From NCBI GenBank assembly GCA_964012805.1, contig CAXGUD010000004.1:1-64000 (forward strand): 64,000 nucleotides of DNA. The letters are read 5' to 3'. Each line of letters starts with the position of its first letter. Within the stretch, counting starts at the first letter, position 1. Shown here one piece after another: positions 43,830 to 63,498 of this stretch. The position numbers and the translations under genes are program-made. The stretch is from an uncultured Bacteriovoracaceae bacterium (GTDB lineage Bacteria > Bdellovibrionota > Bacteriovoracia > Bacteriovoracales > Bacteriovoracaceae). The notes beneath the pieces are model-generated. The model was not told where the DNA came from, did not search any database, and worked only from the letters and a program-made list of their open reading frames with translations.

Positions 43830-44477
43830 TTAACTTTTTAAGAGGTTTAGGGATGTTCTGTTTATTTTTCTGATCCATTTACTAAGAAGCAATCTTTTAA
43901 GAAGAAAGCTGGGGCTTCTTATTGGGGCAAGATAAATATTGTTCATTGTCGCCATTTCTATCACATTCCAATCTTCATTAGTGTTTCCAGAAAGCTTTGG
44001 TGTTTTACCTTTGTAAATGACTTTAGGCTTTGCTACTGAGTATATACGCCCTAAGTGAGGACGATTGAGTTCGTAAGTGTAAATAAAGGCCTTCTTTCTT
44101 AAACTAATCATATCTCTATAGAGTCTTAGCCAGAATTGAAAAGAGTTTCCCTGACCAGACATTCTTGGGTCCAGCCATAAACAATTAATTTCAAAAATAT
44201 CGTTGAGGTCAAATTTTTTAAAATAGGACTCAGCATTGATAATTTGAGGGGCAAGGTATTCCATTGACCTAAAGGGTGCTTTATGAGCAAGAGCATAGCC
44301 TCCTCTAAATTTTCGATTCTCATCAACATACACGATAACTTTTGAGCGCTTTAAATAGTCTATTGGAAATTCTGTTTTATGAATTTTTCTTGCAACTGAT
44401 TGAAACTTTTTTAAATCTTGTAGACTTCTTAATTGTAGGAATTCCATGGAACCTCTCCTAGAAATTTTTATGTTCAT
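43830..44477 (-). CDS. Hypothetical protein, possibly GNAT-fold (LuxI/FeeM-like)
   Basis: RGGY, PFRS, FEINCLWLDP and RIY patterns; fold is inference only. Confidence 0.45.
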   Translation of the reverse strand: MNIKISRRGSMEFLQLRSLQDLKKFQSVARKIHKTEFPIDYLKRSKVIVYVDENRKFRGGYALAHKAPFRSMEYLAPQIINAESYFKKFDLNDIFEINCLWLDPRMSGQGNSFQFWLRLYRDMISLRKKAFIYTYELNRPHLGRIYSVAKPKVIYKGKTPKLSGNTNEDWNVIEMATMNNIYLAPIRSPSFLLKRLLLSKWIRKINRTSLNLLKS

Positions 44478-44606
44478 AGGATTGGAGAAAGCTTGAATAA
44501 CGTCAAGGAGGATGAGAAGAGTTTACAAAAACCTAACAGACCAGAGAGTTTTTAACACTCTCTTAAAAAAAAATAAAAAAAAGAAAAATAGTTAAGTTTG
44601 TTATTC

Positions 44607-44636
44607 ACTTAACTTAACTTAACTTAACTTAACTTA
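44607..44636. repeat. Simple sequence repeat (ACTTA)x6
   Basis: Six perfect pentamers overlapping the stop codon of 44629..44997. Confidence 0.9.
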
Positions 44637-44997
44637 GAATTGAAAAGGTAAAGTAGATAAAAATTCCAACGAGAATAAAGGAAAAATCTCTTCCATTTTG
44701 AATCAATTGCGTTCTTTGAAAAATTTCTTTATGCGAGGGAGTTCTTTTGAGTTCCTTTTGAAGTTGTTTGGGAACTTTGATTTTAAGTGATCTTTTAACA
44801 TCTTTTTCTCTAAAGAAAACGAGCTTTAAAAGGACTAGGAAGCCAAAGAGAAGAAGATGCAGGTCTGGGAATGATTTGGGAAAAAAGTTTAAAACAAGGC
44901 CAAGTGGAAGAACTGTCAGCGCTGATAAAAGAATAAGAACAAGGCCGTTAAATTTAAAGTATTCTGTTAATGTTTTCATAAGTATGAAACTAGTCAT
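44629..44997 (-). CDS. Hypothetical membrane protein (3 TM)
   Basis: Hydrophobic segments; 122 aa. Confidence 0.7.
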   Translation of the reverse strand: MTSFILMKTLTEYFKFNGLVLILLSALTVLPLGLVLNFFPKSFPDLHLLLFGFLVLLKLVFFREKDVKRSLKIKVPKQLQKELKRTPSHKEIFQRTQLIQNGRDFSFILVGIFIYFTFSILS

Positions 44998-45262
44998 TTT
45001 TCTTGGATAAGGGAAGCTTTTTTGCGAACCATAAATAATCTATAGGTTGACGAGGGGTCGTTTCTTTTAGGAGGCTTCTTTAACTCTTTATAAGAATTGA
45101 CAAAAAAGTGATGATATGCTTTTTGCGGTGCGTTTTTTGGAATTGATTATAGGCATTTATTTTTCAAGTCGACCATGAAATAAGGGCAATCATGCCTGCT
45201 TGTTCCTAGTAGAACACCTTTTATATAATTGAGGAAAAATTTATATTCAAGGAGTACTCGTT

Positions 45263-46966: not shown

Positions 46967-46977
46967 GGTCAAAGAGT

Positions 46978-47024
46978 AGTGTTCTATGAAGAGAGGGGTT
47001 GCCTAAAGCTCTTCATAGGACACT
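46978..47024. terminator. Hairpin between convergent genes
   Basis: AGTGTTCTATGAAGAG ... CTCTTCATAGGACACT 16-bp near-perfect stem. Confidence 0.65.
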
Positions 47025-47082
47025 CATATTTCTTAAAATAAAAGAGTTAGCATCCTGCTTTTTCTATGACTTGATCACTTAA

Positions 47083-48900
47083 TCACTGAATCAAAACACC
47101 TTCTTTAACAACCTGAGTCCCATCATAGAAGGTAATAGTGACTTGCCCTGTCCTCCAACCTTCAGCATAAGTTTTGAAAACAGGAGTGGCGAAAGACCTC
47201 CTTCGGCTTCTTGAACGGTAAGTTGAATAGCGGCCAAAGGATGGGTGAATGTCATAGTGAACAAATCTAACGTCTTTAAGGTCTCCAGTAAGTTTTAGCT
47301 TAAAGGAAATTTCTTCATCTGTTTCAGAAACAATGACCTTTTCAACATTAATTGAAGGCCTTTTCTTTTCACCAATAGTTTCTTTACTTTTAAGGACAAT
47401 GTTTTTTTCTGCGATTTTCCGATCTTTAAGGTAAAACTTAAGAACAAGTGGAAGGTCACTTTTTCTTGAGTAGGTTTTAAAAGAGAAACTGCCTTTATAA
47501 CCATTGATCTGGTGTTCTCTGAAGCTACCTTTTTGAAAAATAGTCATAGCGTAGAGGAGCTTCATATTCTCTTTTCCAGGGACCACAGTCACAAGGTAAT
47601 AGTTTTTCCCATTTTCTTTATAGTTCTTATATTCGACTTTAATCGTCTTAAGGTTAAAAGTGGGTACCAGGGTTATTTCTGGCTCTGGCTTAGGCTCTGG
47701 CTTAGGTTCTGGCTTAGGCTCTGGCTCAGGTTCTGGCTTAGGCTCTGGCTTAGGTTCTGGCTTAGGCTCTGGCTTAGGTTCTGGCTTAGGCTCCGGCTTA
47801 ACTTTTATATCTGTTTTAACGGAAAAGCTTTTTTCTATTGAAGTGTTGTTTTTAAAGAAGACTTTAATTTTGACTTTAAAATGAGAAGCATCCGTATAAA
47901 GGGAAAGGGTATAGGGATCTTCTTTAAGTGTATCTATAAAGTCTAGATCTGGTATTATGTAGACAACTTTTTCAATTATTTCATCACCATGACGGTCTAA
48001 GGTTTTTAGGCCCGGCTCAAAATGAAAGAGAAAAGGATACTCTCTGTCACCTTCGTCTACTTTGTATGTAAATTTAAAGTTTTTGTAGGGAGGTTTTGGT
48101 TTACTTATAACGTTTGTTCCATCCTTATCTTCATCTTCCTTTTCACCGTCTTTACCATCTTCTTTTGGTACTGGATAAAGGTGGTTAATTCCTTGGATAT
48201 CAAGTTTTGTAAGACCGAGGTTCATTCTTCTTATGGGCCTATTATTATCAAGCCTTGTAATCGTTGGTTTATTATTGATTCCAAAGTCTCTGCCTCCGTA
48301 GTGCATGATACTCCTATAATCGTACGGAGTGTTGTCCATGACTGCGTAATGGTTCATTTTCTTAAAATTCGTTTCAGCGCCTTTTTGAATATTTTCCCAG
48401 TGAATTTTGACATAGTCATCCCTATCAGGCCTTGATTGCTCGTGATAAACACCTGCAGCATGAAGGATTTCATGGGTAATCGTGAGGTAGTGTTCGCAGC
48501 CGTAGGATAAGTTTAAGTCCTGTCTTCCTCTCTGGCGGCCAACAAAACTCCAACACCCTTTGGGCTGAAGAGGAGATTTGGAAGTAAAAAATATGTAATC
48601 TTCATCTTGATCTGTTTTTTCTCTAAAGCGGAGGTTTGATTTTTTGGTGAGGTATTCAATGGCCTTTAAAATATGGGGGACGAGGTGGTGGCTTTTGGGG
48701 TCTATTTTGTAAATAATCTCCTGGTTTTCCCAGGTGATATTGTAAGCAGTTGGGGCCAGTTTCTCGTAGGTTTTATACCTTGCAATATCACCCTCAATAA
48801 TAACCTCTCTTTTTTCGCTGTTGGTAGAAGGGGTAAGAGTGGCGTAAGCCTGTGTGACCAAACTGAGGGCCATAAAAAAAGTAATCAAAAGCTTTTTCAC
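47083..48900 (-). CDS. Secreted astacin (M12A) metalloprotease with Pro-rich linker and pYEATS-like C-terminal domain(s)
   Basis: IEGDI prodomain motif, GCWSFVG, HEILHAAGVYHEQSRPDRD, YDYRSIMHY; C-terminal V.YDIHPSF motif. Confidence 0.92.
   Translation of the reverse strand: MKKLLITFFMALSLVTQAYATLTPSTNSEKREVIIEGDIARYKTYEKLAPTAYNITWENQEIIYKIDPKSHHLVPHILKAIEYLTKKSNLRFREKTDQDEDYIFFTSKSPLQPKGCWSFVGRQRGRQDLNLSYGCEHYLTITHEILHAAGVYHEQSRPDRDDYVKIHWENIQKGAETNFKKMNHYAVMDNTPYDYRSIMHYGGRDFGINNKPTITRLDNNRPIRRMNLGLTKLDIQGINHLYPVPKEDGKDGEKEDEDKDGTNVISKPKPPYKNFKFTYKVDEGDREYPFLFHFEPGLKTLDRHGDEIIEKVVYIIPDLDFIDTLKEDPYTLSLYTDASHFKVKIKVFFKNNTSIEKSFSVKTDIKVKPEPKPEPKPEPKPEPKPEPKPEPEPEPKPEPKPEPKPEPEITLVPTFNLKTIKVEYKNYKENGKNYYLVTVVPGKENMKLLYAMTIFQKGSFREHQINGYKGSFSFKTYSRKSDLPLVLKFYLKDRKIAEKNIVLKSKETIGEKKRPSINVEKVIVSETDEEISFKLKLTGDLKDVRFVHYDIHPSFGRYSTYRSRSRRRSFATPVFKTYAEGWRTGQVTITFYDGTQVVKEGVLIQ
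47678..47799 (-). repeat. 12-bp coding repeat, about 10 units of (K/E)PEP
   Basis: GGCTTAGG(C/T)TCT units on the plus strand. Confidence 0.92.
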
Positions 48901-49395
48901 GGTTTGTCCTTTCGTTAGATTATGAAAAAAAGTTGAAACTTTGAGGCGCTTAAAGAACGCAAAAAGACCCGAGACTCTAAAAGCGCAGGGAGTCTTTCTA
49001 GGAGAAGAATGTAAGAAACATTTTTGCCCGTAAATTCAGTTCAACAATTTTTTTTGCATTACATTTCTTATATCCTCAGATTTTAAAATCAAGAAACAAA
49101 GCAGTAAAAAGAACTTTATAAGACCAAAGTTTACAAAAATTTTACAAACATATGCGTTACTTGGAAGGTTCTTATAAATTTAAAGGAAGCTTTCAAAACT
49201 TTTGCTTCTTAATGTTAATTTCAATCGATTTAAAAATGCTTTATAGTCCCTTTTTATAAATAAAGAAGAGTAATTATAAAGTTACCTATTTTCCAAGTCG
49301 GAATATTTTTTCTATAATTTCTAAAGAGAAAAAAATTTAAAAGAATAAAAAGAAATATTTCAAACGCAAATAAATAAGCATGGAGGCTTTCGTTT

Positions 49396-49884
49396 ATGAC
49401 CAATCGAACCTTGGTTTTACTTTATCTTCTCATCTTCATCCTCTCTAGTTGTGGACGCCCTAAAAATTATAAGGAACAGGCCATTTTAAGTTTTCAGGGG
49501 GCCCATGCTGCTCTGGCTAACAATAATTATGCTAATGGGGTTTTGATCTATGGAAAGTGGGACAAATACCCTAACATGGTCTACCGATTTTGGGTAAAAC
49601 CGGGCGTTGATGAAGTAAAAACTGTTAATATTTATGTACCTACTGGAAAAGTTACCTTTTATGGAATGGCCGCAGACTCAGATTGGAATTTTAAATGTGA
49701 TATTACAAATAAGAAAAAACTAAAGCCCGCTAAAAAAACAGGATTTACCATAAATTTTAGTAGCGGTAATGGCAATTGCAATTCAACAAACGACCTTCTC
49801 TATAATAAAAATACAGTGAAGAAAAAGCAATTTGAGGAGTGTATTAAAAAAGGAACCCTAAATTGTGGTAAGTATACTTTTTAA
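49396..49884 (+). CDS. Hypothetical lipoprotein
   Basis: Lipobox LSSC, GGAGG RBS, four further Cys residues. Confidence 0.8.
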   Translation: MTNRTLVLLYLLIFILSSCGRPKNYKEQAILSFQGAHAALANNNYANGVLIYGKWDKYPNMVYRFWVKPGVDEVKTVNIYVPTGKVTFYGMAADSDWNFKCDITNKKKLKPAKKTGFTINFSSGNGNCNSTNDLLYNKNTVKKKQFEECIKKGTLNCGKYTF

Positions 49885-49893
49885 TTTTATGAT

Positions 49894-52394
49894 CTATTTG
49901 CGTGATATTTTCTTATAGGGCCTAATAAGGTGATTGACCAGAGAGGCTTCATTTAGTTTATCCTTATTGGGCATTTGCTTAAAAGTTCCGAAAGCTCAAA
50001 GTAAAATGTTGAAAGGTCTTCCTTACCAGAAATCGTTAAAAGAAAAGCCAAAAGTCTTGAACGGTTTAAAAGTAAAGAAATGGTCTCATCAAAATGAGCA
50101 TAAAGTCGTGCCTTTTTAGGGGCATTGGCCATTTTATCTTTGTCCAGGTCATTTACCTTTCGCACTAAAAAAACATACTCCAAAAGGTTAACCATGATTC
50201 GATCTAAATCTTCCCTTTTATCCTGAATGGATTTATCAAAACCTCTAGGCAAAGAATAGGTGACTTTAGGTCCAAGATTATTTTTATGGAGTATATTGAG
50301 GGAGTCAAAATACCTCATAAGAAGTAAAAATAAATTTGATAGCTTTTCAACAGACCAGGCCAGGAGCTTATTTTTTTCATACTTTTGAACATTTCTTAAT
50401 TCTCTTATAGTCATTGTGATTTCTTCTTCTGGTAACTTTAATTGTGAGCATAGGCTTTTGTTAAAATTATGAAAGAGGGTAAAGAGGATTTGATCAATTT
50501 GTTCCACACTAAGGTCCGTAGCATTTGGACTCGTCATGATCTCAAGTGAAGAAACAGATTCCCCTATTATTTTTGACAGGTCTTTACTTAATTTTTCTTT
50601 TTCTTTGAATGGAAGAACTTCGAGGAGGGCTTCATAGTCAATACTTATTTCTTTATTTTTATTGCTTTCTTCCTCTACTTCTGTGATGTCATCCACGATA
50701 AATAAAACCTTTTCAAGGCTTTCATCATTCTTGCATAGGGGAATGTATTGTATACTCAATGTCCTTCCTTTTTTTTTCTTAGATCAGGATGAAGAACTTT
50801 TTGAGGAAGGAGTTCTTGGGAATTGAATAAAAACTCGGATTCAGTGCAGCCAAAAAGAATTTTCCATGAAGCGAGGAAAGATTTTTTTTCTTCGTCTTTA
50901 AAATTAAAAAATAACAGGTTGAAGCTGTTCAATCCAAGAATATCTTTTCCAAAAATTTCTTTTGAGTATTTTGATATAGGTTGGAAAATTTTCCCTTTTT
51001 GATCTACACAAAAAATGGCCTTATCAATAGAGGTAAGCATACCTCTTGATTCATTTAATGAGTTTCTTAGATCTTCTTTTGCCTCGTGAATAAGGTCTTC
51101 AAGGTTAGAGTTCACTTTTTCAAGTTCAAAGCTCAGTTGTTCAACTTTTTGAAAGTCTTTACCAAAGTTTGAAGCGACAATATGGCCCTGAATAAAAATA
51201 AAAATAAGACCGGTCAAGTGAGCAATCTCTGGAGGATTTAAAATAGTTAACCCAATGAGAATATCGTAAGTAATCCCAAAGGTACCAAGAAGGATGGAAT
51301 AAAAAAATGTTAAAGCATTAGGTGTTTTTTTTATAATGCCCCTTGTAACAAAAAATATGAGGAGGAGGAGGTAGCCAAAAAGGACCATCTGACAACTTAT
51401 GAGGAAATAAAATTTTGTAAAATATAATGGTAAAAGTAATAAAGGGATTAGAGAAAGTGTAACAGAAATGTATAAAAAAACCTTTTTTATAATAAGAGAA
51501 GTCTTATCTTTAATTTTTAAAATTTAAAAGAGGTATTCAAATAAACAGGGAAATAAATAAATCATGCTTAAATATTCAAACTTTTTTTCTAATATAAAAA
51601 AGAAAAGGTTTGGATTAGGGGAAAAAATAAAAGAGTAATGTCCAAAAGAAAAAAAGCGAGAAAGTGCCACAAGACAAAAAAGTCCTAGGAAGAGAGACGA
51701 GTAGTCCTTTCTTCTTCGTGAAAAGATGGCGAGGTGGTAAACGGCCAAAATGAAAAAAGCACCCATAACAAAAAAGACAACGGCCATCTCTTGAGACAAG
51801 AGTGAGAAATATCCCTCTTCGTGGTAAATCTTTGGAGCCCCGAGAAAGCCGCCAGCTCGAAAATGGAAGTTAGCAAGGTGGATGACAATGGTAAGATCTC
51901 TTCCCATCAAGGAGATGTCTCGGTCAAAGCGGATTCCTTGAGGTGTACTTTCTTCCTTATTCTTACCAATAATACCGGTCTTTAGTTGAATCGTTTTTTT
52001 ACTATCAGTTATGAATATTTCACTACTCGTTGCCAAGTATTGGAAATAAATTCTTAGTTTCCCCGTTTGCTTAAGGTTTTTTAATTTCATAATAAGGGTT
52101 CCATAGCTGGACCCAGGGAGATTCAAGTTTTTATCCCATAGAGAGCTACCCTTAAGATAAAGAGGATTTTGATTGGGAAGTTTTTTATTCAAAACGTCTT
52201 TGAGTGGAATGAAGTGTTTCCAGTATAAGACCCAGGACCCGTCTAATTCTAAAGGTTCATCTTTTTTAAAGTCCCATTCTTTAAGATCAGCTTCTCCTTT
52301 TTCCATTGATGGGCTTATTTTCTTGGAGTACTTTGGTCCACAAGACACTAAAACGAAAAAAAAAATATATAAAAACTAAAAATCTTATATTCAT
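49894..52394 (-). pseudogene. Disrupted 7TM-DISM/PAS sensor (joins ORFs 51524..52348, 50756..51388, 49953..50759)
   Basis: About 1.2 kb closely similar to 34795..36000. Lesions: 10-nt homopolymer frameshift 52356-52365, in-frame TAA 51524-51526, 9-nt homopolymer frameshift 50769-50777, probable frameshift near 49980. Confidence 0.85.
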
Positions 52395-52436
52395 TCAACA
52401 GTAGAAGTTGATTTTTATCCTTTTAATACCTGACTT

Positions 52437-52463
52437 TTATCGGCAGTCTCTGATAGTAATATA
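52437..52463 (-). promoter_or_regulatory. FliA (sigma28)-like promoter of the sensor pseudogene
   Basis: Minus strand TATA-N15-GCCGATAA (perfect -10). Confidence 0.6.
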
Positions 52464-52524
52464 AGTGGATAGAATTTGTTTAAATGCCTTGAATAGTTCA
52501 AAATAAAAGGGCAAAGGATGAAAA

Positions 52525-53007
52525 TTGTTTAAATATTTAACTCTTTCCTACTTTTTGTTGATTCAGTTCTTTTTGATAGGACAAGTAAGGGCCGAAAGTG
52601 ATCCCAAACCTAATTGTACCCATGATGAAAGTACTTTTCGTTGTGTGGAGTACGTTCGGAATTATGACGCTGATACAATTACAGTAAATATCCCAGGAAC
52701 TCATCCAATTCTTGGAAAAAAAGCTCAGGTTAGAGTTTTTGGTGTTGATGCACCAGAAATTAGGACAAAAGATAAGTGTGAAAAAAAATTAGCGAGAGAG
52801 GGAAAACAAGTCGTTAGAAAAATGTTGAAAAATGCCAAGGTCATTCATCTTATCAACGTAAAAAAGGGAAAATACTTTAGAATTTTGGCAGATGTTTTAA
52901 TTGATGGAGTTTCCCTTTCGAAATACCTTTTGAAAAATAATTATGGATATAAATACTTGGGGAAGAAAAGAAAAAAAATCGATTGGTGTAGGTTTAAAGC
53001 CGAATGA
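52525..53007 (+). CDS. Thermonuclease (SNase-like) family secreted nuclease
   Basis: YDADTI, VRVFGVDAPE, KYFRILA motifs; signal peptide. Confidence 0.92.
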   Translation: MFKYLTLSYFLLIQFFLIGQVRAESDPKPNCTHDESTFRCVEYVRNYDADTITVNIPGTHPILGKKAQVRVFGVDAPEIRTKDKCEKKLAREGKQVVRKMLKNAKVIHLINVKKGKYFRILADVLIDGVSLSKYLLKNNYGYKYLGKKRKKIDWCRFKAE

Positions 53008-53038
53008 ATGGGAAAACTTTAAAGTTTTTGTTGGCTCT

Positions 53039-54484
53039 CTAAAAAATTCCGTTCCCCTTATTGCCTCTAAACTGCCCCCAATAAACTTTTGGACCCGTCC
53101 TTTTAGGGAGCTCAAAGCGAAGGAGCTTACCTGCGACAGGAACGATCAGGTCAAGCTTTCCATTACGGTCGATATCTTTTGCAATAGGGGTCGCCGCTGA
53201 AAGTCCATTTAGGTTTTTTTCAAAAAGAACTTCTCTCGTTTTCCCGTCATAAATCCTTAGGGCGCTTTTCATCGATCCTGCGATTTCAAAATTTTCAGGG
53301 TACTTGGCCTCTAAATTTATAAGGACAAGAACCTCATCAAATCCATCGTTATTCAAATCAAAAATAAGAGGTGAGGGGTAACCGTTTAGGCCAAAAACTT
53401 TTGAGTCAATAATTTTACCGGTCTTTCCATTCATCCAAATAATGCGGTTTTCTTCTATATGCCTAGGCCAGACCCCTTTAGCGGTTGTAATAACCATATC
53501 TAGTCCAGATTTATTATCAAAATTACCTAATGCGGGCGAAGAATAGGTTTCAAACCCCTCAACTTTTTGTTTCCAGAGGATGTTTCCTTTAAAATCAAGT
53601 TTATAAAATCCTGAATCAACGCTTGTTGCAAAGATGAACTTTTCTTTAGAGTGAACCAGAGGGGACGAAATCCACCCTTTTTTCTTTTCTGGCAGCGACC
53701 AGAGGGTTTTGCCTTTTAAGAGGTCGTAAAGGTAAAGGCTCCCTTTCACAACTTCACCACCCGTCCCAAAAAGGGCGTGCCAAACATTATTGTGTTTAAA
53801 GAGGGTGGGGATGCTATAAACTTCTCCATTATCCTCTGCTTTAAATTCTTTTAAAATTTTTCCCGTTTTAGGATGGGCAATAAAGAGCCGGGCGGGAGGT
53901 CTTGGTTCAAATCCACCGCCTGATTGTCCGAATAAAATGCGGTCGCCAAATTTACTGATTGTATTAAAGCCAGGAACATCGCCTTTCCAAAACCCTTCAT
54001 TGACTTTCCGAAGGTCCCAAAGAAGTTCACCATTTTTTCCATTTAAGGCCCAAAGACCTGGGCAAGTTTTAGAGGAACCTTTATGGCAGTGGTCTGTTCC
54101 AATTAAGACGTCTTTGACTTTGTCTTCGTTAATATCCATTAAAAAGGGGGTGGCAAAAACTCTTGATTGAGCATTATAAGACCAAAGAAGCGTACCCTTT
54201 TTCCCATCGATGGCCATTATAGGTCTTGCATGTCCGCCATGTTCAAAAATTCCTGAGCCAATAATAATATCTTCCACTCCATCAAGGTTTAGGTCAGCAA
54301 GATTTGGTGAACTAAAGCCAATGGACTTTTGGGAGAATTGCCAGACATTTTTAAATTGAAAACCTTCTTGATGAGAAGGAATCTCTTGTCCCGTCTCTTG
54401 AGGTGTATACTTGGCCATGACGAAAAAGCCACCTAAAAGGATAAAAAGAGAGGCAAAGAAAAGACCTTTGTTGTTTACTTTCAT
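53039..54484 (-). CDS. Exported FG-GAP/PQQ-like beta-propeller protein
   Basis: DLNLDGVEDII, DINEDKVKDVL, DLNNDGFDEVL, DIDRNGKLDLI; G..LW repeats; C-terminal WGQFRGN. Confidence 0.85.
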   Translation of the reverse strand: MKVNNKGLFFASLFILLGGFFVMAKYTPQETGQEIPSHQEGFQFKNVWQFSQKSIGFSSPNLADLNLDGVEDIIIGSGIFEHGGHARPIMAIDGKKGTLLWSYNAQSRVFATPFLMDINEDKVKDVLIGTDHCHKGSSKTCPGLWALNGKNGELLWDLRKVNEGFWKGDVPGFNTISKFGDRILFGQSGGGFEPRPPARLFIAHPKTGKILKEFKAEDNGEVYSIPTLFKHNNVWHALFGTGGEVVKGSLYLYDLLKGKTLWSLPEKKKGWISSPLVHSKEKFIFATSVDSGFYKLDFKGNILWKQKVEGFETYSSPALGNFDNKSGLDMVITTAKGVWPRHIEENRIIWMNGKTGKIIDSKVFGLNGYPSPLIFDLNNDGFDEVLVLINLEAKYPENFEIAGSMKSALRIYDGKTREVLFEKNLNGLSAATPIAKDIDRNGKLDLIVPVAGKLLRFELPKRTGPKVYWGQFRGNKGNGIF

Positions 54485-54489
54485 TTTTT

Positions 54490-57400
54490 TTAGTCCTTTA
54501 TAATTTTATAAATATGACCGGCCTTAAAAGGGTATTTAATTTCTAGAGGTTTTTTAAAAGGCAGCATAAGCCTAATTTTTTTAAGCTCTTTAACACCCCC
54601 CAGGCCAAAGTGAAGTTTAAGTGAATTAAAGGAAGCAAAGCCACCACCAATTTTTGTTTCTTTAAGTTGAATGGATCCATCAGGCCTTGTTATTTCAATC
54701 TTAACGTTGGGAAGGTTTTTTTTCCCTTTAACGATAACGTCAAAAGTAATGGAGTTTCCTCCCTGAGGATTTTCATAAAAGATCCCCTTTTGGTTAGGCC
54801 CACTTGTGACGACATCGATATCTCCATCATTATCCATATCCGCTTTTGCCCAGGAAAAAGTGTGAGAGGTTTCACCCATATTCCATTTTTTTTCGGAAAA
54901 CTTAAAGCCCTTTCCCTTTTGATTGATAAGGAGTCGGTTAGGTGTATAGCGTTTAATATTACCTGAACCATTTGTGACAAAGATATCTTCATACCCATCA
55001 TTATTAATATCTAAAAATTGAGAATTCCAGGACCAATCAGTTCTTGCCACATTAAGAGAATCTGTTTGGTCTATAAAGGTGCCTCCCTTTTGAAGAAGGA
55101 GGATGTTGCTCCACTTTTGCTTTGGGATGTCTTTAAGCTTTGATCTTTTGGGATTAAAAAAACTACTTCTCTCTTTATTACTTTTTATTGTTTCCTCACA
55201 AGAAGCTTTTTTTGAGGGTGAGCTTATTTTTTCACAAAGAGAAACATCCCAAAGGTCTACCGCCATATTTTGAACAATGGTATCGAGGCATATATTTTTC
55301 CCCATTTCTGCAAGAATCTTATTCGCCCCCTCTGACTTTTGGAAACAGCCTTCAAGATCATTTTGTTGAACCGAGACCCTGACCCTTTTAACAATATTAC
55401 AGGCCAATTGATCCTCACCACTTAAATTTTTACATTCTTCCCCTTTTTTAAAGGTTGCTTCTCTAGGCATCATATCTGTGGAAAAAAGATCAAGTTCTCC
55501 GTTGTTGTCAATATCAGCTGTCATAAAGCTCATCGTATTAACGGGTGCAGAGGGAATTTGTTTTGAAAAATTTTTAATGATAGAAGGTTTACCATTTTTA
55601 AAAGAATAGTAAATATCGGGCTCAGAAAAATCATTTCCAACAAAAAGGTAGGGAGTATGAGGTCCTTTAATAAAAGAGATCAAAGAGGAGAGGGTCGCTC
55701 CATTGGTTTTGTAATCTTTATCCAAATCGATGGATTTATAACGAAAAGGTTCTTTTGATTTTTGAGAGAGGTACGCCCTGTTGGTTGACGTTTTGTCAGT
55801 GGGACCTAAAATTTCGTTAAAAAAATTAAAGCCACCAATAACGATGTCCATAAGGTCATCATCGTTTAGATAACCAAAGCTTGAGCTGATGGTCATGGTG
55901 TAGTGAAGGTCTGAAAGATCCCTTTTTTTAAATTTTAGATTTTGATTTTCGTAAAGAACAAACTTTTTTTCATTATTTGTTAAAAAATCTGTGTCTCCAT
56001 CATTATCTAGGTCCACGGGAAAAATGGTGTCTTCTGGAGCAGCAATCTTTCCAAGCTTTATTTCGCCAACCTTTTTAAGTTCAGTTTTATGATAGGTATA
56101 AAACAAAGCTTTTCTAGGACCAATAACCATCATTTCAGGAAAGTCGTCATTATTTAAATGAACTGCCGCCGTTGTTGTGACAAAGCCTCTTTCGTTAACA
56201 AAGTCTGTTTGAAATATGTTTTTTTTGTAAAGGACCTGGGCCAAATTCTTTTTTCCACTTTTTTGTTCCTTTTTAAGGTATGCTGCTTTTTTTATTTGAA
56301 GCCCTTCTCTTTTTAGGTCAGTCACATCTTCCCAGGAAAGCTCTCTTTTTTTAAGTCCTTCCTTATCAATATGAAATGAAAGGTCAATGCCTTTTATTTC
56401 TTCTGTATTTTCTGTGTTTTCTTTGTTTCGATTAGAAAGCTTAATAGGTTTTTCCTTTTTCTCTTCAACCTTAAGCTTTTTAAAATCTTCTAAAAACTTT
56501 TGTTTCATATAGGGGTTATAGTATTTGATAAAAACTCCCCCTAAAAAACCCATAATTAAGACGCTAAAAAAGAGGACATTAGAGGCCCTCCACCTTAGTG
56601 ATCTACCAAGAATTAAATAAGGGTAAACGCTAAAAGTTCCCAAACAAAATAGAAGCACCATGCCAAATTCTGGAGCAAGGCCTGCCTGAAGAAGGACTGA
56701 GACTAAGATTATATCGAAGGCGATGGGAATGGGGACAAAAGTTGCTACGAAAGCGGTTAAAAAGAGGGAGAGAATATTGACTTCTAAACCCTTTAAAAAG
56801 TTAAGGGGGACAAACTCAATCATGGCCGCTCCAAAAAATCCTGCCAAAATCATAAAAGGAACGGTGGTTTTACATATTTCAAAAGTGTTTTTAACAAAAC
56901 CTAAAAGCACTTCTTTTAAAGAGGGAAAGAAGGGGTCTTGTTTGGCAAATGTGGGGGCGCAAATAGTTTCAGTTAAAGAGGTAAAGGCCGTCTCTTTTTG
57001 GCCTTGGCTTGTTTCCTCTTTTGTGAAAAAGGGAATCACCCAAAGAATAAAGAGAAGAGTTAACACAATTTTTAAAACGGCGAAATGGAAAGGAAGAAGG
57101 GTAAAAAGCATGGAAAAGACAATAATGTTTAATGTAGGAGAACTAATAAGAGTTGCTAAGGCGGTTTCCACCCGAATGCCCGCCTTTATCATTCCTTGGG
57201 TTATGGGAGTGGCGCAGTTGACACAAACTCCAAGGGGGACTCCAATCATCATGCCTTTTAAAATGTTTTTGACGGGGTCACCAGACCGTTTTTTCTCGAA
57301 ATAACTTAAAAAAGTCAAAAGGGCACCTGCCAAAAGAAGGCCAAAGATCATTCCCCTTTTATTGGTGTTTGACCAGTTTACAAAGTGAAAAAATAGGCGC

Positions 57401-57615
57401 TGGGGTAGAGTGTCTTCTTCTAAAATGGGAAAAACAACGTCTTCAGAAAACGCCAGCCCTTCAATGAAGGCCCTTCCACCCATAGCACTTTTGTCATCCA
57501 GTTGGGGGTAGCGGCTCATGGACCAAAAACTAAACGCAATTAATAGAACGAGGCCTAAGGCGAGGGGTTTTCTCTTATCTTTAAGGAAGTCTTTGACAAT
57601 AATTTTTAAGGACAT
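54490..57615 (-). CDS. ArsP/YraQ (DUF318)-type permease fused to an FG-GAP/ASPIC-UnbV (CRTAC1-like) domain
   Basis: About 9 TM with PLGVCVNCATPI, SSPTLN, PIPIAFD; DLDNDGDTD, DIDNNGELD, DMDNDGDID; GGGFASFNS..LHFGLG. Confidence 0.8.
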   Translation of the reverse strand: MSLKIIVKDFLKDKRKPLALGLVLLIAFSFWSMSRYPQLDDKSAMGGRAFIEGLAFSEDVVFPILEEDTLPQRLFFHFVNWSNTNKRGMIFGLLLAGALLTFLSYFEKKRSGDPVKNILKGMMIGVPLGVCVNCATPITQGMIKAGIRVETALATLISSPTLNIIVFSMLFTLLPFHFAVLKIVLTLLFILWVIPFFTKEETSQGQKETAFTSLTETICAPTFAKQDPFFPSLKEVLLGFVKNTFEICKTTVPFMILAGFFGAAMIEFVPLNFLKGLEVNILSLFLTAFVATFVPIPIAFDIILVSVLLQAGLAPEFGMVLLFCLGTFSVYPYLILGRSLRWRASNVLFFSVLIMGFLGGVFIKYYNPYMKQKFLEDFKKLKVEEKKEKPIKLSNRNKENTENTEEIKGIDLSFHIDKEGLKKRELSWEDVTDLKREGLQIKKAAYLKKEQKSGKKNLAQVLYKKNIFQTDFVNERGFVTTTAAVHLNNDDFPEMMVIGPRKALFYTYHKTELKKVGEIKLGKIAAPEDTIFPVDLDNDGDTDFLTNNEKKFVLYENQNLKFKKRDLSDLHYTMTISSSFGYLNDDDLMDIVIGGFNFFNEILGPTDKTSTNRAYLSQKSKEPFRYKSIDLDKDYKTNGATLSSLISFIKGPHTPYLFVGNDFSEPDIYYSFKNGKPSIIKNFSKQIPSAPVNTMSFMTADIDNNGELDLFSTDMMPREATFKKGEECKNLSGEDQLACNIVKRVRVSVQQNDLEGCFQKSEGANKILAEMGKNICLDTIVQNMAVDLWDVSLCEKISSPSKKASCEETIKSNKERSSFFNPKRSKLKDIPKQKWSNILLLQKGGTFIDQTDSLNVARTDWSWNSQFLDINNDGYEDIFVTNGSGNIKRYTPNRLLINQKGKGFKFSEKKWNMGETSHTFSWAKADMDNDGDIDVVTSGPNQKGIFYENPQGGNSITFDVIVKGKKNLPNVKIEITRPDGSIQLKETKIGGGFASFNSLKLHFGLGGVKELKKIRLMLPFKKPLEIKYPFKAGHIYKIIKD

Positions 57616-57687
57616 AAATAAATTTTAATCGAGTCTTTCTTTTTAATCAGGGTGTTAAATAATACCTCAAAAGACCGACAAGTTTTC

Positions 57688-60600
57688 ATGGGTTTTAAGC
57701 ATAAAAGACCTCTTTTTTTAGGGGTCCTCCTCATTATTTTTACGCTGATTTTCTGGACGCAAAGCCGTTACCCCCAGCTTAATGAAAAAGAGCAAATGAG
57801 TGGTAGGCTCAAAATTAATGAGGCCTTAAGCTTTGATGTGGTTTACCCCATCCATGATAAAGACCCGCTTTTTAAAAAAATCGCTTACTCCTTTATTAAT
57901 TGGTGTGCAACCAATAAAAACGGCATGATCTTTGGCGTTTTATTTGCCACTTTGTTTTTAACCCTTCTTCAAAATGTGCCCAAAAGACCCAAAACTAAAA
58001 ACCGTTTCATCCACTCTCTGGTGGGGATGCTCTTAGGGGCACCTTTAGGAGTGTGCGCGAATTGCGTTGCCCCCATAGGCCAGGGGATGTATAAAACTGG
58101 AGAAAAACCAGAAACTATTTTAGCGACCATCCACTCGTCACCAAGCCTAAATATTATTGTGTTAACAATGCTTTTTAGTCTTTTTCCGCTTGATTTCGCT
58201 ATCATTAAAGTCCTCTTTAGCGTTTTTTTTATTTTGGTTGTGACGCCCATTTTAACAAAGGCCTTTTCAAACGATATCAAGGTTCCTGAGGAGTTCTGCC
58301 CAATAGAAATTGTTCCCAAAGAAAACTGGGCGACGGCCATCAAAGAATCCTTTAAAGGCTTTTTTAAAAACCTCCTCTACATTCTTTGGGAAACGGTCCC
58401 CATTATGTTTTTAGCGGGGATTTTGGGCCTGGCGGTTGTTGAAATTTTTGACCTTAGCTTTCTTCAAAGCCCTAAAGATAGTTTTCCCCTTTATTTTTTA
58501 ATTGCTCTTATTGGAACCTTTCTTCCCGTTCCCATTGCTTTTGATTTGGTTTTCTCCTTTGTTCTATTGAAGTCAGGTCTTGGCATTGGGCCTGCTCTTA
58601 CTTTTAATTTTTGTCTGGGCATTTTTAGTATTTATCCGTTCTTTATCATTTATCAAACTCTTTCTAAAAAGCTCGCCTTTGGAGTTTTTGTTTCTACCAT
58701 GGTGGTTGGAATTCTAGCGGGCTACACGGTCTCTTTAAAACACCTTTATACAGAACGAAGAGACCTCGCTATTTTAAATAAAAATATAAAAGAACTTGAA
58801 AAAAACGCCCAAAAAAAAGGATCTCTTAAAGGAGATCAGTTTTATGGTTTGGTTTTAAAGACCTGTTCCCTTTATGATGGCCAGACTCAAAAAGATGAGT
58901 GTATTGAAAATAATATTTTCAATGAGGCCAAAGCTAAGATGAATTACTTTTACTGCCTTGTGGGAAAAGTTAGGACTCAAGATAAAAAGAATCAATGCCT
59001 CAAAAGATTACTTCCCCATTTTATATTGGCAGGAAAGTTTGAACCAGGCTTTTGCTATAGTAATGAACCCAAAGAAAAAAAGAGTTGCCTTAAAAAGTTA
59101 ACAATTTATAGGGAAGTTTCTCTCAAAAAGGACCCCTCCTTTTGTAAAAAACTAAAAAAAGAAAAACTCATAAAAGAGTGCCAATCAATAATGGTCGACC
59201 ACCTCCTCTCTAAGGGAGGAGACATTGAGTTATGTTTACAAAAAGAAGATGTTAGAAAATGCCTCGATAATAATCAAAGAATACAGGACCTTTCAATAAA
59301 AGGTAACTTTGGCTTTAAAAGATGCCTTCTCTACAAAAGTAAAGAAGGGCAAGACTTGTGTATTGATGAACTCTTTTTCTTTTCCGCTTACCCCCGGGTT
59401 TCTTTAGGCTGTGAAAGGGTTAAAGACAATAAACTTAAAATGAGGTGTTTGAAAGTAAAAGAATTTTCTGAGGTTGCTAAAAAGGGAGGGCCTTTTTCTT
59501 TTTGTGAAGAAAATTTTAAAAAGAAGCATATATTGGATTTTTGTGAAACGACGTTATTGAGGAACCTTTTTATTGAGGGCGGAGACCCTGTTAAAAAGTG
59601 TAAAAGATTTAAAAAGCCCTCAAAATGTCTTAAAGCGGTTTCTGTTCATTTATATGAAAGGAAAGGGATAGAATCAAAAGAGGACCTCTGCTCTTTAGTT
59701 CCTGACGCAAAAATAAAAAGCTATTGTCAGGAAGAGATCGCTTATCGGGAAAATTTTACTTTTGAAATGTTAAATAATTGTAGTAGCAATGAAGCTAAAG
59801 GATTTGTTCCCGAAAGGCAGTGCGAACTAAATGCAATTAATAATTTTAAAAAGAATAAAATTAAAGAAGAGGTTTGCTCTTTTATAAAATACCCTAAAGA
59901 AAGAAAGAATTGCTTTAAAAATACAATGTTTATGCATGCTGCCTTAGGTAATCTAGAAAAATGTTCATTATTAAAAGGGGATGATAATAAAGAATGTCAC
60001 AAAGTCTATAAAGACTTTAAAATTAAGATGGGTTTAAGAGGTGGGCTTTCCACTCTTTTTGTGGACACCCATTTAAAAAAGCTTGAGAAAAAGGAAAAGA
60101 GGTCTTCTTTTAAAGGTGAAAAACTTAAAAAAGCAAAATCTTTAAAGTTAAGTCCTTTTTATAAGTCTAAAAATCTCACAATTCAATCATTTCCCTATTT
60201 TGAAAGATCAAAAGGAAATGCCTTTTCAACCCTATTTCAAAAAATTGAAGGCCCGGAAATTGGGCTTAGTTATTCCTATGGTTTTTCCATTTTAGAAAAT
60301 TTTGAACCTTTTAAATACGGAAAGGGGATATCATCTGGCGATTTTAACAATGACCTTTGGCCTGATATTGCCGTTGCAACAGAAACAGGAGTTCAGCTTT
60401 ATCAGAATTTAGGAAACGGGCGGTTTCAAAGAGTTCCTTTTAACCCAAAAACTAAAGGGATTCCCTTTTTGACCACTTTAGTTGATATCAATAATGATGG
60501 TTGGAAAGACCTTTATATAAGCTCTTATGGAGGGCTGAACCACTTTTATTTAAACCAAAAGGGGATTTTTGAAGAAGAGGGGCTTGATCTGTCTGACCCA

Positions 60601-62013
60601 GACAATGTGATTCTTACCATGAGTGGCGCTTTCTCAGACATCGATAGAGATGGAGATATTGATTTTGTTCAAGGTAACTGGTCCTACGGTGCCTATAATT
60701 TTAGACGACTTAAAGTTGAAACTAGTGTGAACAGAATTTTTTTGAATACTGGAACTAAAGGAAAAATTTTTAAAAGAAGTCATTTTAAGGATAATCTTAA
60801 GGGAGAGACTCTTAGTACCCTTTTAACTGATATAAACCAGGATGGAAAAGTTGACCTTTTTACAGGCAATGACTTTTCTATTCCGGATGGCCTCTATTTA
60901 GGAAAGGATAAAGGAAAGTTTCAAAAAATTAAAAAGTCAGATAAAATAATTCCCCTTATTTCAAAGTTCACCATGAGTTTTGATAGTGCTGATATCAATA
61001 ATGATCTTCACCTTGACCTCTTTTCAGCCGAGATGGCCTTTGTTGGAAATAAAAAGGATGATAATTATTGTGATTCTATAAAAAATAAATTTGCTAAATC
61101 AAAATGCCAAAATCATTTTTCCATAAGAAGGGTTTCAAGAAAAAGGGATATTGAAAAATGCTCTCAATACAAAGGAGAGACCAATAAAAACTGCCTTTTT
61201 AGTATGATGATTGGAATAATGACTGAATCTCAAGATACAAAAAATTGTGATAAGATACCGACCTCTTTAAAAGAGGCAAGAATTTTTTGCCAGCGCCTTT
61301 TTGATCTTAAAAAAATTCAAGACCAAACAGTAACAGACAGAAACTTTGATAAGGAAGACCTACCTCAAAAGGGGATGAGTAACCTCCTTTTAATGAACAA
61401 TGGGTTGGGGGCCTTTGTTGATCAAACGAAAAAGTTTGGCGTGATAAATAGCTTTTGGAGCTGGAATTCAAAGTTTGCCGATCTCGATAATGATGAATGG
61501 CAGGACCTTTATGTAGGAAATGGCTTTCTTTACAACGATGAAATGAGCACCAATGTCTTTTTTCATAACCAAAATGGAAAAACTTTTCTTCAAAAGGAAA
61601 AGGAATTTGGGCTAGAAGACTTTATCCACACCCATTCCTATACCTATATTGATTACGATCTCGATGGTGACTTAGATATCCTCTCAACGGGAAGCTACGC
61701 TCCCTTAAGACTTTTTAAAAACAACCTTAAAAAGGGCAACTCGATCTCTTTTTCCTTTATTGACCACAAGGGGAACCGTGATGGAATTGGAAATAGGGTC
61801 ATTATCCATTATGGGAAAGATGGTGAAAAACGGCAAATTAGGGAAGTAAAAATGGGAGGAGGGTTCCTTTCCTTTGACAGACCTTGGGCCTATTTTGGTC
61901 TTGGGACCAATAATAAGGTCAAGAAGGTTGAGGTCATTTGGTCTACAGGGGAAAATGAAATCATTAACCAAGATTTTGAAGAAGGAAGGCATTACCAAAT
62001 AGAAAGAGAATAA
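57688..62013 (+). CDS. Paralogous permease with Cys-pair repeat stalk and FG-GAP/ASPIC-UnbV domain
   Basis: PLGVCANCVAPI, SSPSLN, PVPIAFD; 13+3 C-x(8-13)-C repeats; GDFNNDLWPD, DINNDGWKD, DIDRDGDID; NRDGIG, GGGFLSFD..AYFGLG. ATG 57688 aligns with the paralogue start. Confidence 0.85.
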   Translation: MGFKHKRPLFLGVLLIIFTLIFWTQSRYPQLNEKEQMSGRLKINEALSFDVVYPIHDKDPLFKKIAYSFINWCATNKNGMIFGVLFATLFLTLLQNVPKRPKTKNRFIHSLVGMLLGAPLGVCANCVAPIGQGMYKTGEKPETILATIHSSPSLNIIVLTMLFSLFPLDFAIIKVLFSVFFILVVTPILTKAFSNDIKVPEEFCPIEIVPKENWATAIKESFKGFFKNLLYILWETVPIMFLAGILGLAVVEIFDLSFLQSPKDSFPLYFLIALIGTFLPVPIAFDLVFSFVLLKSGLGIGPALTFNFCLGIFSIYPFFIIYQTLSKKLAFGVFVSTMVVGILAGYTVSLKHLYTERRDLAILNKNIKELEKNAQKKGSLKGDQFYGLVLKTCSLYDGQTQKDECIENNIFNEAKAKMNYFYCLVGKVRTQDKKNQCLKRLLPHFILAGKFEPGFCYSNEPKEKKSCLKKLTIYREVSLKKDPSFCKKLKKEKLIKECQSIMVDHLLSKGGDIELCLQKEDVRKCLDNNQRIQDLSIKGNFGFKRCLLYKSKEGQDLCIDELFFFSAYPRVSLGCERVKDNKLKMRCLKVKEFSEVAKKGGPFSFCEENFKKKHILDFCETTLLRNLFIEGGDPVKKCKRFKKPSKCLKAVSVHLYERKGIESKEDLCSLVPDAKIKSYCQEEIAYRENFTFEMLNNCSSNEAKGFVPERQCELNAINNFKKNKIKEEVCSFIKYPKERKNCFKNTMFMHAALGNLEKCSLLKGDDNKECHKVYKDFKIKMGLRGGLSTLFVDTHLKKLEKKEKRSSFKGEKLKKAKSLKLSPFYKSKNLTIQSFPYFERSKGNAFSTLFQKIEGPEIGLSYSYGFSILENFEPFKYGKGISSGDFNNDLWPDIAVATETGVQLYQNLGNGRFQRVPFNPKTKGIPFLTTLVDINNDGWKDLYISSYGGLNHFYLNQKGIFEEEGLDLSDPDNVILTMSGAFSDIDRDGDIDFVQGNWSYGAYNFRRLKVETSVNRIFLNTGTKGKIFKRSHFKDNLKGETLSTLLTDINQDGKVDLFTGNDFSIPDGLYLGKDKGKFQKIKKSDKIIPLISKFTMSFDSADINNDLHLDLFSAEMAFVGNKKDDNYCDSIKNKFAKSKCQNHFSIRRVSRKRDIEKCSQYKGETNKNCLFSMMIGIMTESQDTKNCDKIPTSLKEARIFCQRLFDLKKIQDQTVTDRNFDKEDLPQKGMSNLLLMNNGLGAFVDQTKKFGVINSFWSWNSKFADLDNDEWQDLYVGNGFLYNDEMSTNVFFHNQNGKTFLQKEKEFGLEDFIHTHSYTYIDYDLDGDLDILSTGSYAPLRLFKNNLKKGNSISFSFIDHKGNRDGIGNRVIIHYGKDGEKRQIREVKMGGGFLSFDRPWAYFGLGTNNKVKKVEVIWSTGENEIINQDFEEGRHYQIERE

Positions 62014-62042
62014 GGAGAGCTTTAAAGATTAAAAAGCTCCCC
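62014..62042. terminator. Hairpin between convergent genes
   Basis: GGAGAGCTTT...AAAGCTCCCC directly after the stop codon. Confidence 0.5.
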
Positions 62043-62065
62043 TTCAAATATTCCAATGATTTTTT

Positions 62066-62731
62066 TTATTTTTTACTTAGGTCAACAGAGTCTGGATGGA
62101 TGAGCACACCATTTCTTTTTGTATTAAAAAAGAGCATCATTTCGCCATTGGCCCCATTGACAAAAGCATTGTAGCTCATTTTTGCACCATCTGGTGCTGT
62201 AAATTTAATATCGGCCGTCTCAACGGGAAAGCCCGTTTTACCGTTAACAATAATGAACTTTTTATCAAGTTTAGTAATAGAGATATCTCCTCTAGAAAAA
62301 GCTGGAGCTGTTTTTAAAATGTTAAGGAGTTTTTGATCCCAATCAGCAACAGGCTTACCACCTATAATACGAGTTCCTGCGGGAATGTCTTTTAAAGGGT
62401 TTCCTTTGGCATCAATAAAGAATCTATCATCTTTTTTAAGGCCAAAAGGTCTATCTAAAGTAAAGTTAGCTAAATAACCCTTATCACCAGTGGGAACTTC
62501 GTCTTGTGGTTTTCCCGTTTCAAAGACGGTTTCTTCCTGAACCGGTTCTGAAGCTGCTCCTTCTTCCTCGAGAGGGCTTGAAGCTGTTTCAGATGATTTT
62601 TTTTCCGTCGTTTCCTCAGGTGCCTCTACACTGGCCTCTTGATTGTTTGTTCCGCCGTCATCTTTTTTTGTTAGGTTAATACCACCTAAAACAACAAGGA
62701 CGCCCACTAAAACACCTAAAACAATTTTCAT
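62066..62731 (-). CDS. Hypothetical membrane-anchored exported protein
   Basis: N-terminal TM helix, acidic linker, globular C-terminus; AGGAG RBS. Confidence 0.8.
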   Translation of the reverse strand: MKIVLGVLVGVLVVLGGINLTKKDDGGTNNQEASVEAPEETTEKKSSETASSPLEEEGAASEPVQEETVFETGKPQDEVPTGDKGYLANFTLDRPFGLKKDDRFFIDAKGNPLKDIPAGTRIIGGKPVADWDQKLLNILKTAPAFSRGDISITKLDKKFIIVNGKTGFPVETADIKFTAPDGAKMSYNAFVNGANGEMMLFFNTKRNGVLIHPDSVDLSKK

Positions 62732-62916
62732 TGGAAACTCCTGTTATGTTTTCAAAATTTATTCTACATGAAAAACATACTTTGTTAAAAAATAAATTAG
62801 TTAAATCCTTGTCGGTTTTTTATTTCATTTTTATTGAACAAAATGGAGGTTTTTTAGAGTTCATAAAATTCATTCACTACTAGATTAAATTTTTAAATAA
62901 ATTTATGGTTAAAGAA

Positions 62917-63498
62917 TTAATCTTTCTCAGTTAATTTTTTTGAAAGTGATGCTTCTTTTTTCATAAAAATTTTGAACGTTAAGGTAAGCCAAAACAATGT
63001 GACTACTAAAGAGATGTAAAAGATGATTTTTAAAATAAATTGACTTCCTTCCCCCGCCTCTTTCATTTTTTCTAGATCAAAATAGACCTTTTCCTTTGTC
63101 CGAAGACCACCTAATTGTAAAACCTTTTTATTGACCTGATTTTTTTGAATCGTTATATAAAGGACATCACCAGGGACCACTTCCCGCTTGAAAGAATTTA
63201 TATCAAAATGTTTAAAATAAAAATCACTGAGACCCACGAGTTTTCCTCCCTTCATTTTTAAAAGAAAGGTTGAGCTTTTCTGTGGTCCGTAACCACCCCT
63301 TGCTGAGGCCCTTGAAACCACTTTAGAGTCTTCATAAGTGGCTTTTATTTCCATCCATAATTTCTCTTGTATGTTAATTCCTCGAAAACTTATTTTATAG
63401 AGGATAAAGCTGATGAGTATAAAAAAGAGAGAAAATCCTCCAAATAAAATTTTTCCTGTGTTTAAGCTTCCCTTTTTTTGCATAGTTAGATCCTCCAC
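62917..63498 (-). CDS. Hypothetical 2-TM membrane protein (start may be ATG 63483)
   Basis: TM helices at both ends; GGAGG upstream of ATG 63483. Confidence 0.75.
   Translation of the reverse strand: MEDLTMQKKGSLNTGKILFGGFSLFFILISFILYKISFRGINIQEKLWMEIKATYEDSKVVSRASARGGYGPQKSSTFLLKMKGGKLVGLSDFYFKHFDINSFKREVVPGDVLYITIQKNQVNKKVLQLGGLRTKEKVYFDLEKMKEAGEGSQFILKIIFYISLVVTLFWLTLTFKIFMKKEASLSKKLTEKD

Follow-up and report, generated by a model that had tools for sequence, protein, structure and literature searches.

A 64,000-nucleotide stretch of DNA from an uncultured Bacteriovoracaceae bacterium (contig CAXGUD010000004.1, positions 1 to 64,000; hereafter the window) carries two divergent genes, A and B, whose products each join a permease to a CRTAC1-like beta-propeller, and profile searches place this fusion in a widespread ArsP/DUF318 subfamily. 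Both proteins score above the Pfam cut-offs for ArsP_1 (50.6 and 55.8 bits for A and B against 32.3) and UnbV_ASPIC (25.7 and 43.4 bits against 23.4), contain four FG-GAP_3 stretches apiece that also pass the cut-off, and carry all six membrane-module motifs quoted in an earlier sequence-only reading of this DNA, which had described them as permease–FG-GAP–ASPIC/UnbV fusions. The open reading frame (ORF) coordinates also agree with its layout of a 72-bp divergent gap and a third propeller gene, C, 5 bp past the minus-strand copy (Table 1). A and B are 39% identical over 385 permease columns (E 4e-76) and 32% over 527 propeller columns, and no further ArsP_1 match occurs in the genome (G000; 4.47 Mb, 35% GC, 100% complete). 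The arrangement is not an assembly artifact, because independent contigs from marine runs, not marked as source, bridge both gene junctions: A/B in X3 record 4, X4 record 12 and X7 record 30, and C/A in X3 record 3, X4 record 10 and X7 record 26, each piece covering its junction and none reaching across the whole stretch. Literature searches, with most subscription journals and all supplements outside their range, turned up no description of an ArsP_1–propeller fusion, in line with the earlier remark that no characterized system of this kind was known. The fusion is real and widespread, an apparently unstudied form of a known transporter family. New here are the CxNC plus aspartate signature, the split and unfused forms, the 13-repeat stalk of B and the decayed propeller of A.

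A permease search at all protein lengths returned 374 clusters at E ≤ 1e-30, and 117 of the best 150 are at least 900 amino acids (aa) long, with 15 of at most 400 aa and 18 in between. The expectation that DUF318 permeases usually stand alone thus survives for the family at large and fails for the CxNC subfamily, whose nearest members are mostly fused. Searching with the A permease among proteins of 572–1822 aa, a length range that favors fusions, gave 320 matches, and 118 of the 119 non-self matches listed are annotated ArsP_1 plus FG-GAP. At least 587 places with the fusion family were confirmed in a genome scan. Its spread is patchy (6/401 genomes in the phylum of the window, 9/201 in a roseobacter-family sample and 2/401 Pseudomonadota, counts that take in the center genomes), many hosts are marine, and the eight matching plasmid records all come from roseobacter-type hosts; viral contigs gave 76 pattern matches, none of them confirmed. 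A search of shorter proteins returned 112 matches, of which 110 were examined: 81 measure 340–400 aa, 71 measure 360–385 aa, and all 81 have CxNC. Some short members may be contig-end fragments; unfused permease genes as a class are judged real because of this tight length cluster and complete loci. In a split form (L115:104-3196), a 374-aa permease ends after its last helix and an orthologous 654-aa propeller with a signal peptide begins 3 bp on. Complete permeases at L126 and L132 have no propeller gene within 5.2 and 2.9 kb downstream (0.2 kb is available at L135), and the permease at L165 bears a different C-terminal domain. Because of the split, unfused and alternatively partnered forms, the membrane core is able to stand alone, with the propeller as an exported, recurrent partner.

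Comparison with the Cu/Zn efflux family SO_0444 (NF033936), SaoE (NF040736) and ArsP (PF03773) reveals a shared full-length membrane core in which the first cysteine and the proline six residues later are in register. HHalign against 16 stand-alone relatives gave 98.7% over 289 columns, with homology running full length over both halves, and Atlas features show 0.96 likeness to PF03773 clusters. Against this shared core, the fusion family has CxNC in place of CSC and an aspartate in place of the repeat-2 cysteine, and it adds an N-terminal helix, a periplasmic SRYPxLxxK loop and the fused propeller. CSC occurs in 16/16 stand-alone relatives, whereas the window proteins have CVNC and CANC; CxNC is invariant (335/335 in one family set, in addition to the short members), as is the hairpin-2 aspartate across the family. 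Where SO_0444-type exporters combine CSC with a third cysteine, both invariant cysteines here lie in one CxNC of the first repeat, and the second repeat has none. A and B fall far below the NCBIfam cut-offs for SO_0444 and SaoE of 300 and 325 bits (A 46.1 and 45.3, B 29.6 and 37.9), while the stand-alone controls L083 and L098 clear the SO_0444 threshold with 361 and 353 bits. The fusion also differs from SO_0444 and ArsP in lacking a metal-resistance operon among the neighbors seen: Pfam scans found no metal regulator or ars gene among 13 window proteins of 43830–63498, and no metal-resistance gene was found among annotated fusion neighbors elsewhere, where small ORFs are under-sampled. Defining profile and domain tests assign the fusion to PF03773 and to the CRTAC1/UnbV domain class, and set it outside SO_0444, SaoE, DASS and TRAP.

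In the predicted model, the permease forms two hairpin plus discontinuous-helix units in an inverted repeat (helices 114-128/132-144 and 149-161/164-173 in unit 1; 281-293/300-310 and 315-327/330-339 in unit 2), an IT/CNT-like fold. Among the structural matches listed, the best are IT-superfamily elevators (VcINDY/DASS, ArsB, AbgT/YdaH, TRAP DctQM) and CNT, with which it is predicted to share the two hairpin and broken-helix units, a cytoplasmic linker and a periplasmic C terminus, and charge bias is consistent with both the inverted repeat orientation and a periplasmic propeller side. The fusion permease nonetheless has no sequence match to the IT elevators, and its scaffold is smaller (375 versus 430–600 residues). 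The SNT/V hairpin-tip motifs of DASS proteins (VcINDY, INDY) are replaced by CVNC and PIAFD, and the periplasmic partner is a beta-propeller in contrast to the DctP-type binding protein of TRAP systems; TRAP DctP/TAXI and DctQ/DctM domains have no Pfam match in A, B or the window neighbors scanned. Profile alignment of the two permease halves did not reveal the internal repeat (probability 0.05), a solved-structure search with the permease profile returned a single match, to a designed helical protein, and CcdA/DsbD and SWEET/TOG-type folds are not among the structural matches listed. CcdA and DsbD-beta have two catalytic cysteines, one per repeat, whereas the fusion permease has both invariant cysteines in the first-repeat CxNC. 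The fold result suggests the IT/CNT elevator class for the ArsP family permease, the predicted mode of action of the fusion is that of an IT elevator, and the model places a candidate pocket in A at C131, N133, C134 and D301.

The predicted periplasmic part follows the plan of human CRTAC1 (PDB 9etn), with FG-GAP repeats and then UnbV_ASPIC, the domain order given for the human protein in PMC10477339. The family propeller profile matches human CRTAC1 at E 7e-28, and the B propeller alone at 8.7e-10. In contrast to CRTAC1, which has a cleaved signal peptide, the fusion is membrane-tethered through its permease; it adds a Cys-pair insert and a stalk and has no EGF-like domain, none being detected by Pfam in A or B. 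The B stalk contains 26 cysteines as 13 pairs with a spacing of 9–14, and its units are likely disulfide-stapled helical hairpins. It has no Pfam or PHROG match, and in Atlas features it matches solely unnamed archaeal clusters at 0.79–0.84, below 0.9 and a lead at most. Stalk length across the family runs from none to 13 repeats, and the cysteine count after the permease ranges from 0 to 32 with peaks at 6, 8 and 22; the count is even in 164/187 members, which fits structural disulfides in an oxidizing compartment. Because of the charge bias, the signal peptide on the split propeller and these even counts, we infer a periplasmic propeller, and the same evidence supports the earlier suggestion that a propeller outside the cytoplasm is coupled to a thiol-bearing transporter.

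Conservation within the two propellers is unequal. B keeps 99% of 74 family-conserved columns and 25/25 conserved aspartates, while A keeps 69% (family median 96%) and 16/25, the fifth lowest conservation of 187 members; of the four lower ones, two fall short of 1000 aa and are probably truncated. The putative Ca-binding Asp motifs are intact in B and partly lost in A. The A permease keeps 92% of 65 conserved columns despite this loss, and the A propeller has partly decayed while its transport core is retained. Enediyne cassettes hold UnbV (E4) with the membrane protein UnbU (E5) in a polyketide context. The fusion resembles that pair in joining a UnbV/CRTAC1-like propeller with a membrane protein, and differs in that UnbV and UnbU are separate genes with a different membrane family and a polyketide setting. 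Literature searches found nothing on the enediyne UnbV/UnbU pairing and no function for bacterial CRTAC1/UnbV propellers; PMC3174227 only lists ASPIC/UnbV paralogues. A separate CRTAC1-like protein of ~970 aa without a permease is encoded elsewhere in the genome (G000:C44:20620-23541, minus strand).

Gene neighborhoods of the fusion vary by lineage. The 80 best alphaproteobacterial loci, ranked by likeness to an alphaproteobacterial sequence and therefore kin instead of a random sample, have Sel1 genes in 71, a small secreted gene in 69, a ~390-aa fiber in 65 and any type II secretion system (T2SS) gene in 65, with sulfotransferases within 3 kb of the fusion in 24. The conserved cassette in this set (L001-L080; for example L019:1-13016 and L073:1-17399) comprises type II secretion genes, a prepilin peptidase, two Sel1 genes, a ~145-aa secreted gene, a MAT-like fiber with C-x4-C, a variable sulfotransferase/glycosyltransferase slot and then the fusion. 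The linked fiber has C-x4-C in 45/45 and matches both PHROG tail fibers and, at E 1.4e-5, Bdellovibrio Bd2133 (PDB 8ond), a non-S74 trimeric MAT fiber according to PMC10769870; Pfam S74 (PF13884) has no match in the tested fiber representative or in G000. Fusion and fiber co-occur in the identical 9/201 genomes of one family, two of which were already-known loci, and lie on different contigs in four. Both fusion-bearing Pseudomonadota genomes have the fiber, and 3/5 fiber genomes there have no fusion; the fiber lies near 2/41 metagenome loci and is absent from 4/4 fusion-bearing genomes of the window's family. The fiber/T2SS cassette was rejected as an account of the window, since fiber, small secreted and Sel1 profiles and PF13884 have no match in G000, whose type II and type IV genes sit on contigs other than that of A and B; the alphaproteobacterial gene that Bd2133 resembles is thus not in the window's genome. 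Occasional neighbors elsewhere are AhpC/TSA, cytochrome c and di-heme genes, and other contexts include YcaO with radical SAM (L139), other CRTAC/TPR genes (L128, L130, L153) and housekeeping genes.

The reading we favor, at somewhat less than even confidence, is a secondary elevator exporter whose substrate, a thiophilic metal or metalloid, is delivered to the periplasm and accepted there by the propeller. A and B would be elevator-type inner-membrane transporters, as the model predicts, whose Cys-Cys-Asn-Asp site likely binds Zn, Cu, Cd or an organo-metalloid; the elevator would likely lift the bound substrate to the periplasmic side, where it may be taken up by the tethered propeller or handed on by it to envelope proteins. 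Export is proposed because the characterized sequence relatives are exporters, of Cu/Zn in SO_0444 and of trivalent organoarsenicals in ArsP, and because of the predicted pocket, and the lack of metal-resistance neighbors, among which small regulators are under-sampled, argues for envelope supply over detoxification; the disulfides, substrate class, direction and propeller role are what we infer. A broader formulation, doubtful when taken whole, makes the fusion a new tripartite-style transporter in which an ArsP-family elevator and a CRTAC1-like propeller, either connected through an adjustable stalk stapled by disulfides or made from adjacent genes, would load thiophilic metal onto envelope and secreted clients (such as the C-x4-C fiber from the type II cassette of roseobacters) or capture metal for uptake. 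If true, it would give bacterial CRTAC1/UnbV proteins a first concrete job and assign the ArsP family to the IT/CNT elevators. Uptake in the manner of TRAP systems, with the propeller capturing a scarce solute (a trace metal or thiol-reactive small molecule) and passing it to the elevator in place of a Venus-flytrap protein, is unlikely: TRAP SiaQM/IseQM among the fold matches, a propeller that can be a separate secreted protein, the many marine hosts and the missing metal-resistance context would all suit it, yet characterized relatives export, a stalk of such variable length is hard to reconcile with fixed docking geometry, unfused forms have no adjacent propeller, and A has a decayed propeller beside a permease that has not decayed. 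At odds with the unfused members, which retain CxNC without a Cys-rich partner, is a redox elevator in which CxNC would take electrons from thioredoxin in the cytoplasm and pass them to clients in the periplasm (the protein's own Cys-pair repeats, or secreted fibers), as CcdA/DsbD does on another scaffold. The change of CxC into an invariant CxxC at a helix start with loss of the third cysteine, the abundance of periplasmic Cys pairs, the fiber C-x4-C and the occasional AhpC/TSA, cytochrome c and di-heme neighbors speak for such a relay, but the repeats range from 0 to 32 cysteines as structural disulfides would, the invariant second-hairpin aspartate suits a ligand site, and the CcdA/DsbD cysteines sit on separate repeats, leaving it improbable. 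We give a similarly low standing to loosely coupled modules, in which the permease alone exports a toxic metal and the propeller and stalk use it as an anchor while acting as a scaffold or chaperone for envelope or secreted proteins, such as the roseobacter type II-linked fiber. Unfused permeases, the different partner in L165, the cassette frequencies among the alphaproteobacterial loci and the identical fusion and fiber genomes favor this view, whereas the missing fiber in the window's genome and family, its rarity near metagenome loci, the fiber-bearing Pseudomonadota without a fusion and the adjacency kept in the split form count against it.

The sequence-only reading had further proposed a co-regulated, possibly heteromeric complex of A, B and C. 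Co-transcription of A and C is likely given their 5-bp gap, and C exceeds the Pfam cut-offs for FG-GAP_3, PQQ_2 and the FAM234 propeller; an assignment to BamB was rejected (TIGR03300 21.8 bits against a cut-off of 285.2). Relatives of C form a separate family of 385 matches, named mostly from Bacteroidota, and C matches no ORF adjoining a fusion in loci L001-L176 and none in L183-L187, its single weak match in the L001-L176 ORFs (E 2e-4, L155) lying at a locus without a permease. C was likewise not found in five related genomes (two only 68–72% complete), and in same-genus genome G002 (68% complete) a B orthologue, 53% identical, stands alone at the site without A or C. Single copies are the rule: the window's genome is the only one of the six fusion-bearing genomes in the phylum sample with two, and paralogue pairs turn up only sporadically elsewhere, as in the divergent L141 (69% identical) and the convergent L153 (59% identical). 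On these grounds a conserved three-gene system was rejected, and comparative evidence marks C as a local neighbor in place of a conserved partner. A single A–B–C complex here, with C perhaps substituting for the decayed propeller directly next to it, is accordingly given a very low probability: the gaps of 72 and 5 bp, the existence of paralogue pairs, the dimeric state of DASS relatives in PMC13381914, and an unverified hint from a close relative, in which fragments P0446 (83% to A) and P0262 (69% to C) carry the same longest-contig entry of 122,846 bases, would support it, against which stand the comparative findings above and, in the same paper (PMC13381914), the belief that IT-family dimer subunits act independently. 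The L141:1-5181 and L153:2-11724 pairs lie on high-GC contigs, the latter arranged tail-to-tail around CRTAC1-like and TPR genes next to a di-heme oxidoreductase.

Phylogenetic trees place A and B in one broad group and not as sisters, with B nearest to the G002 orthologue and P0130 and A on a long branch of unsure position. On these trees a recent tandem duplication is at most possible; the approximately unbiased (AU) test did not reject a grouping of A and B with the G002 gene as one clade (p 0.142). A and B probably work as separate, partly specialized units with B as the canonical copy on a long stalk, and the value of the pair lies less in forming a system than in a natural comparison in which the same transport core carries an intact propeller on a 13-repeat stalk in B and a decayed, stalkless one in A. 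Hundreds of clusters keep permease and propeller together, fused or adjacent, which offers a way into both; the point mutants to make in A are obvious from its predicted pocket; an unfused member is known from Porticoccus sp. W117 (P0412); and cultured roseobacters, among them Ruegeria marina, Mameliella alba and Phaeobacter sp. G2, carry the fusion gene, some on plasmids, where substrate, direction and the link to fiber secretion are testable.

Table 1. Coordinates of genes A, B and C and of their parts within the window
Feature	Position	Strand	Details
Gene A	54490..57615	minus	1041 aa; signal-anchor helix, ArsP_1/DUF318 permease (residues 15-366), short linker, FG-GAP propeller with 6-Cys insert, ASPIC/UnbV domain; from ORF list, Pfam and predicted model
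Gene B	57688..62013	plus	1441 aa from ATG; permease as in A, 13-repeat Cys-pair stalk, intact FG-GAP propeller with 6-Cys insert, ASPIC/UnbV domain; from ORF list and Pfam
Gene C	53039..54484	minus	481 aa; N-terminal hydrophobic helix and FAM234/PQQ-like FG-GAP propeller
Divergent A/B gap	57616..57687		72 bp, AT-rich
A CVNC (C131-C134)	57214..57225	minus	predicted model: tip of hairpin 1 / start of helix 132-144
A PIPIAFD (P295-D301)	56713..56733	minus	predicted model: tip of hairpin 2 / start of helix 300-310
A 6-Cys insert within propeller	55198..55434	minus	3 repeat units, same repeat type as B stalk
B CANC (C123-C126)	58054..58065	plus	
B PVPIAFD (P280-D286)	58525..58545	plus	
B Cys-pair repeat stalk	58864..59997	plus	residues 393-770; 13 units C-x(8-13)-C
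B 6-Cys insert within propeller	61069..61290	plus	3 repeat units, same repeat type as stalk
Hairpin, candidate terminator between B and convergent next gene	62012..62044		-11.9 kcal/mol, z -2.9

An upstream GTG at 57652 offers an alternative start for B, giving 1453 aa and a 36-bp gap to A, and the G002 orthologue begins at the ATG position. No sigma-70 consensus promoter lies inside the A/B gap in a promoter scan that listed 33 sites across the region against 22.9 expected, and no RNA data set was listed among those that contain the sequence. The hairpin after B was equaled by 3/200 shuffles and was not listed by the terminator scan. Beyond it lies a 221-aa membrane-anchored protein (62066-62731, minus strand) with no match in Pfam, NCBIfam or PHROG; by eye, a similar gene comes after the B orthologue in G002 (L101:19265-19903). 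Convergent with that orthologue and directly after it, L101:17731-19224 (minus strand) encodes an FG-GAP propeller whose N-terminal region has a CxxCH motif; the window has no counterpart at this position.

Several further loci hold the fusion in individual settings. At L122:1306-20812 it belongs to a non-ribosomal peptide synthetase (NRPS) cluster, where an NRPS gene on one side and a sulfotransferase on the other share its strand and are separated from it by a few bases. A CrcB fluoride channel gene lies downstream of it at L104, L105 and L131, and a glutaminyl-tRNA-synthetase-type gene precedes it at L103 and L131. By eye, three similar-looking genes with twin-arginine-like starts flank the fusion at L187:420-8046 (G236) and two similar-looking large secreted proteins do so at L183:2-7719 (G401), the tested flanking proteins of both genomes having no NCBIfam match. 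On roseobacter plasmids CP104103.1 (L175) and NZ_CP033220.1 (L176), the fusion lies amid polysaccharide, rhamnose-pathway, sulfotransferase and Ig-like adhesin genes, and the L176 copy is annotated as three pieces. Elsewhere in the window, 45263-48900 encodes a 567-aa protein of the transglutaminase-elicitor family and, convergent with it, a 605-aa astacin Zn-protease whose linker is a Pro-Glu/Lys repeat, and three successive minus-strand ORFs at 49953-52348 (274, 210 and 268 aa) resemble pieces of a single 7TMR-DISM sensor gene, the middle one resembling, by eye, part of a longer G002 ORF (L101:1-1683).

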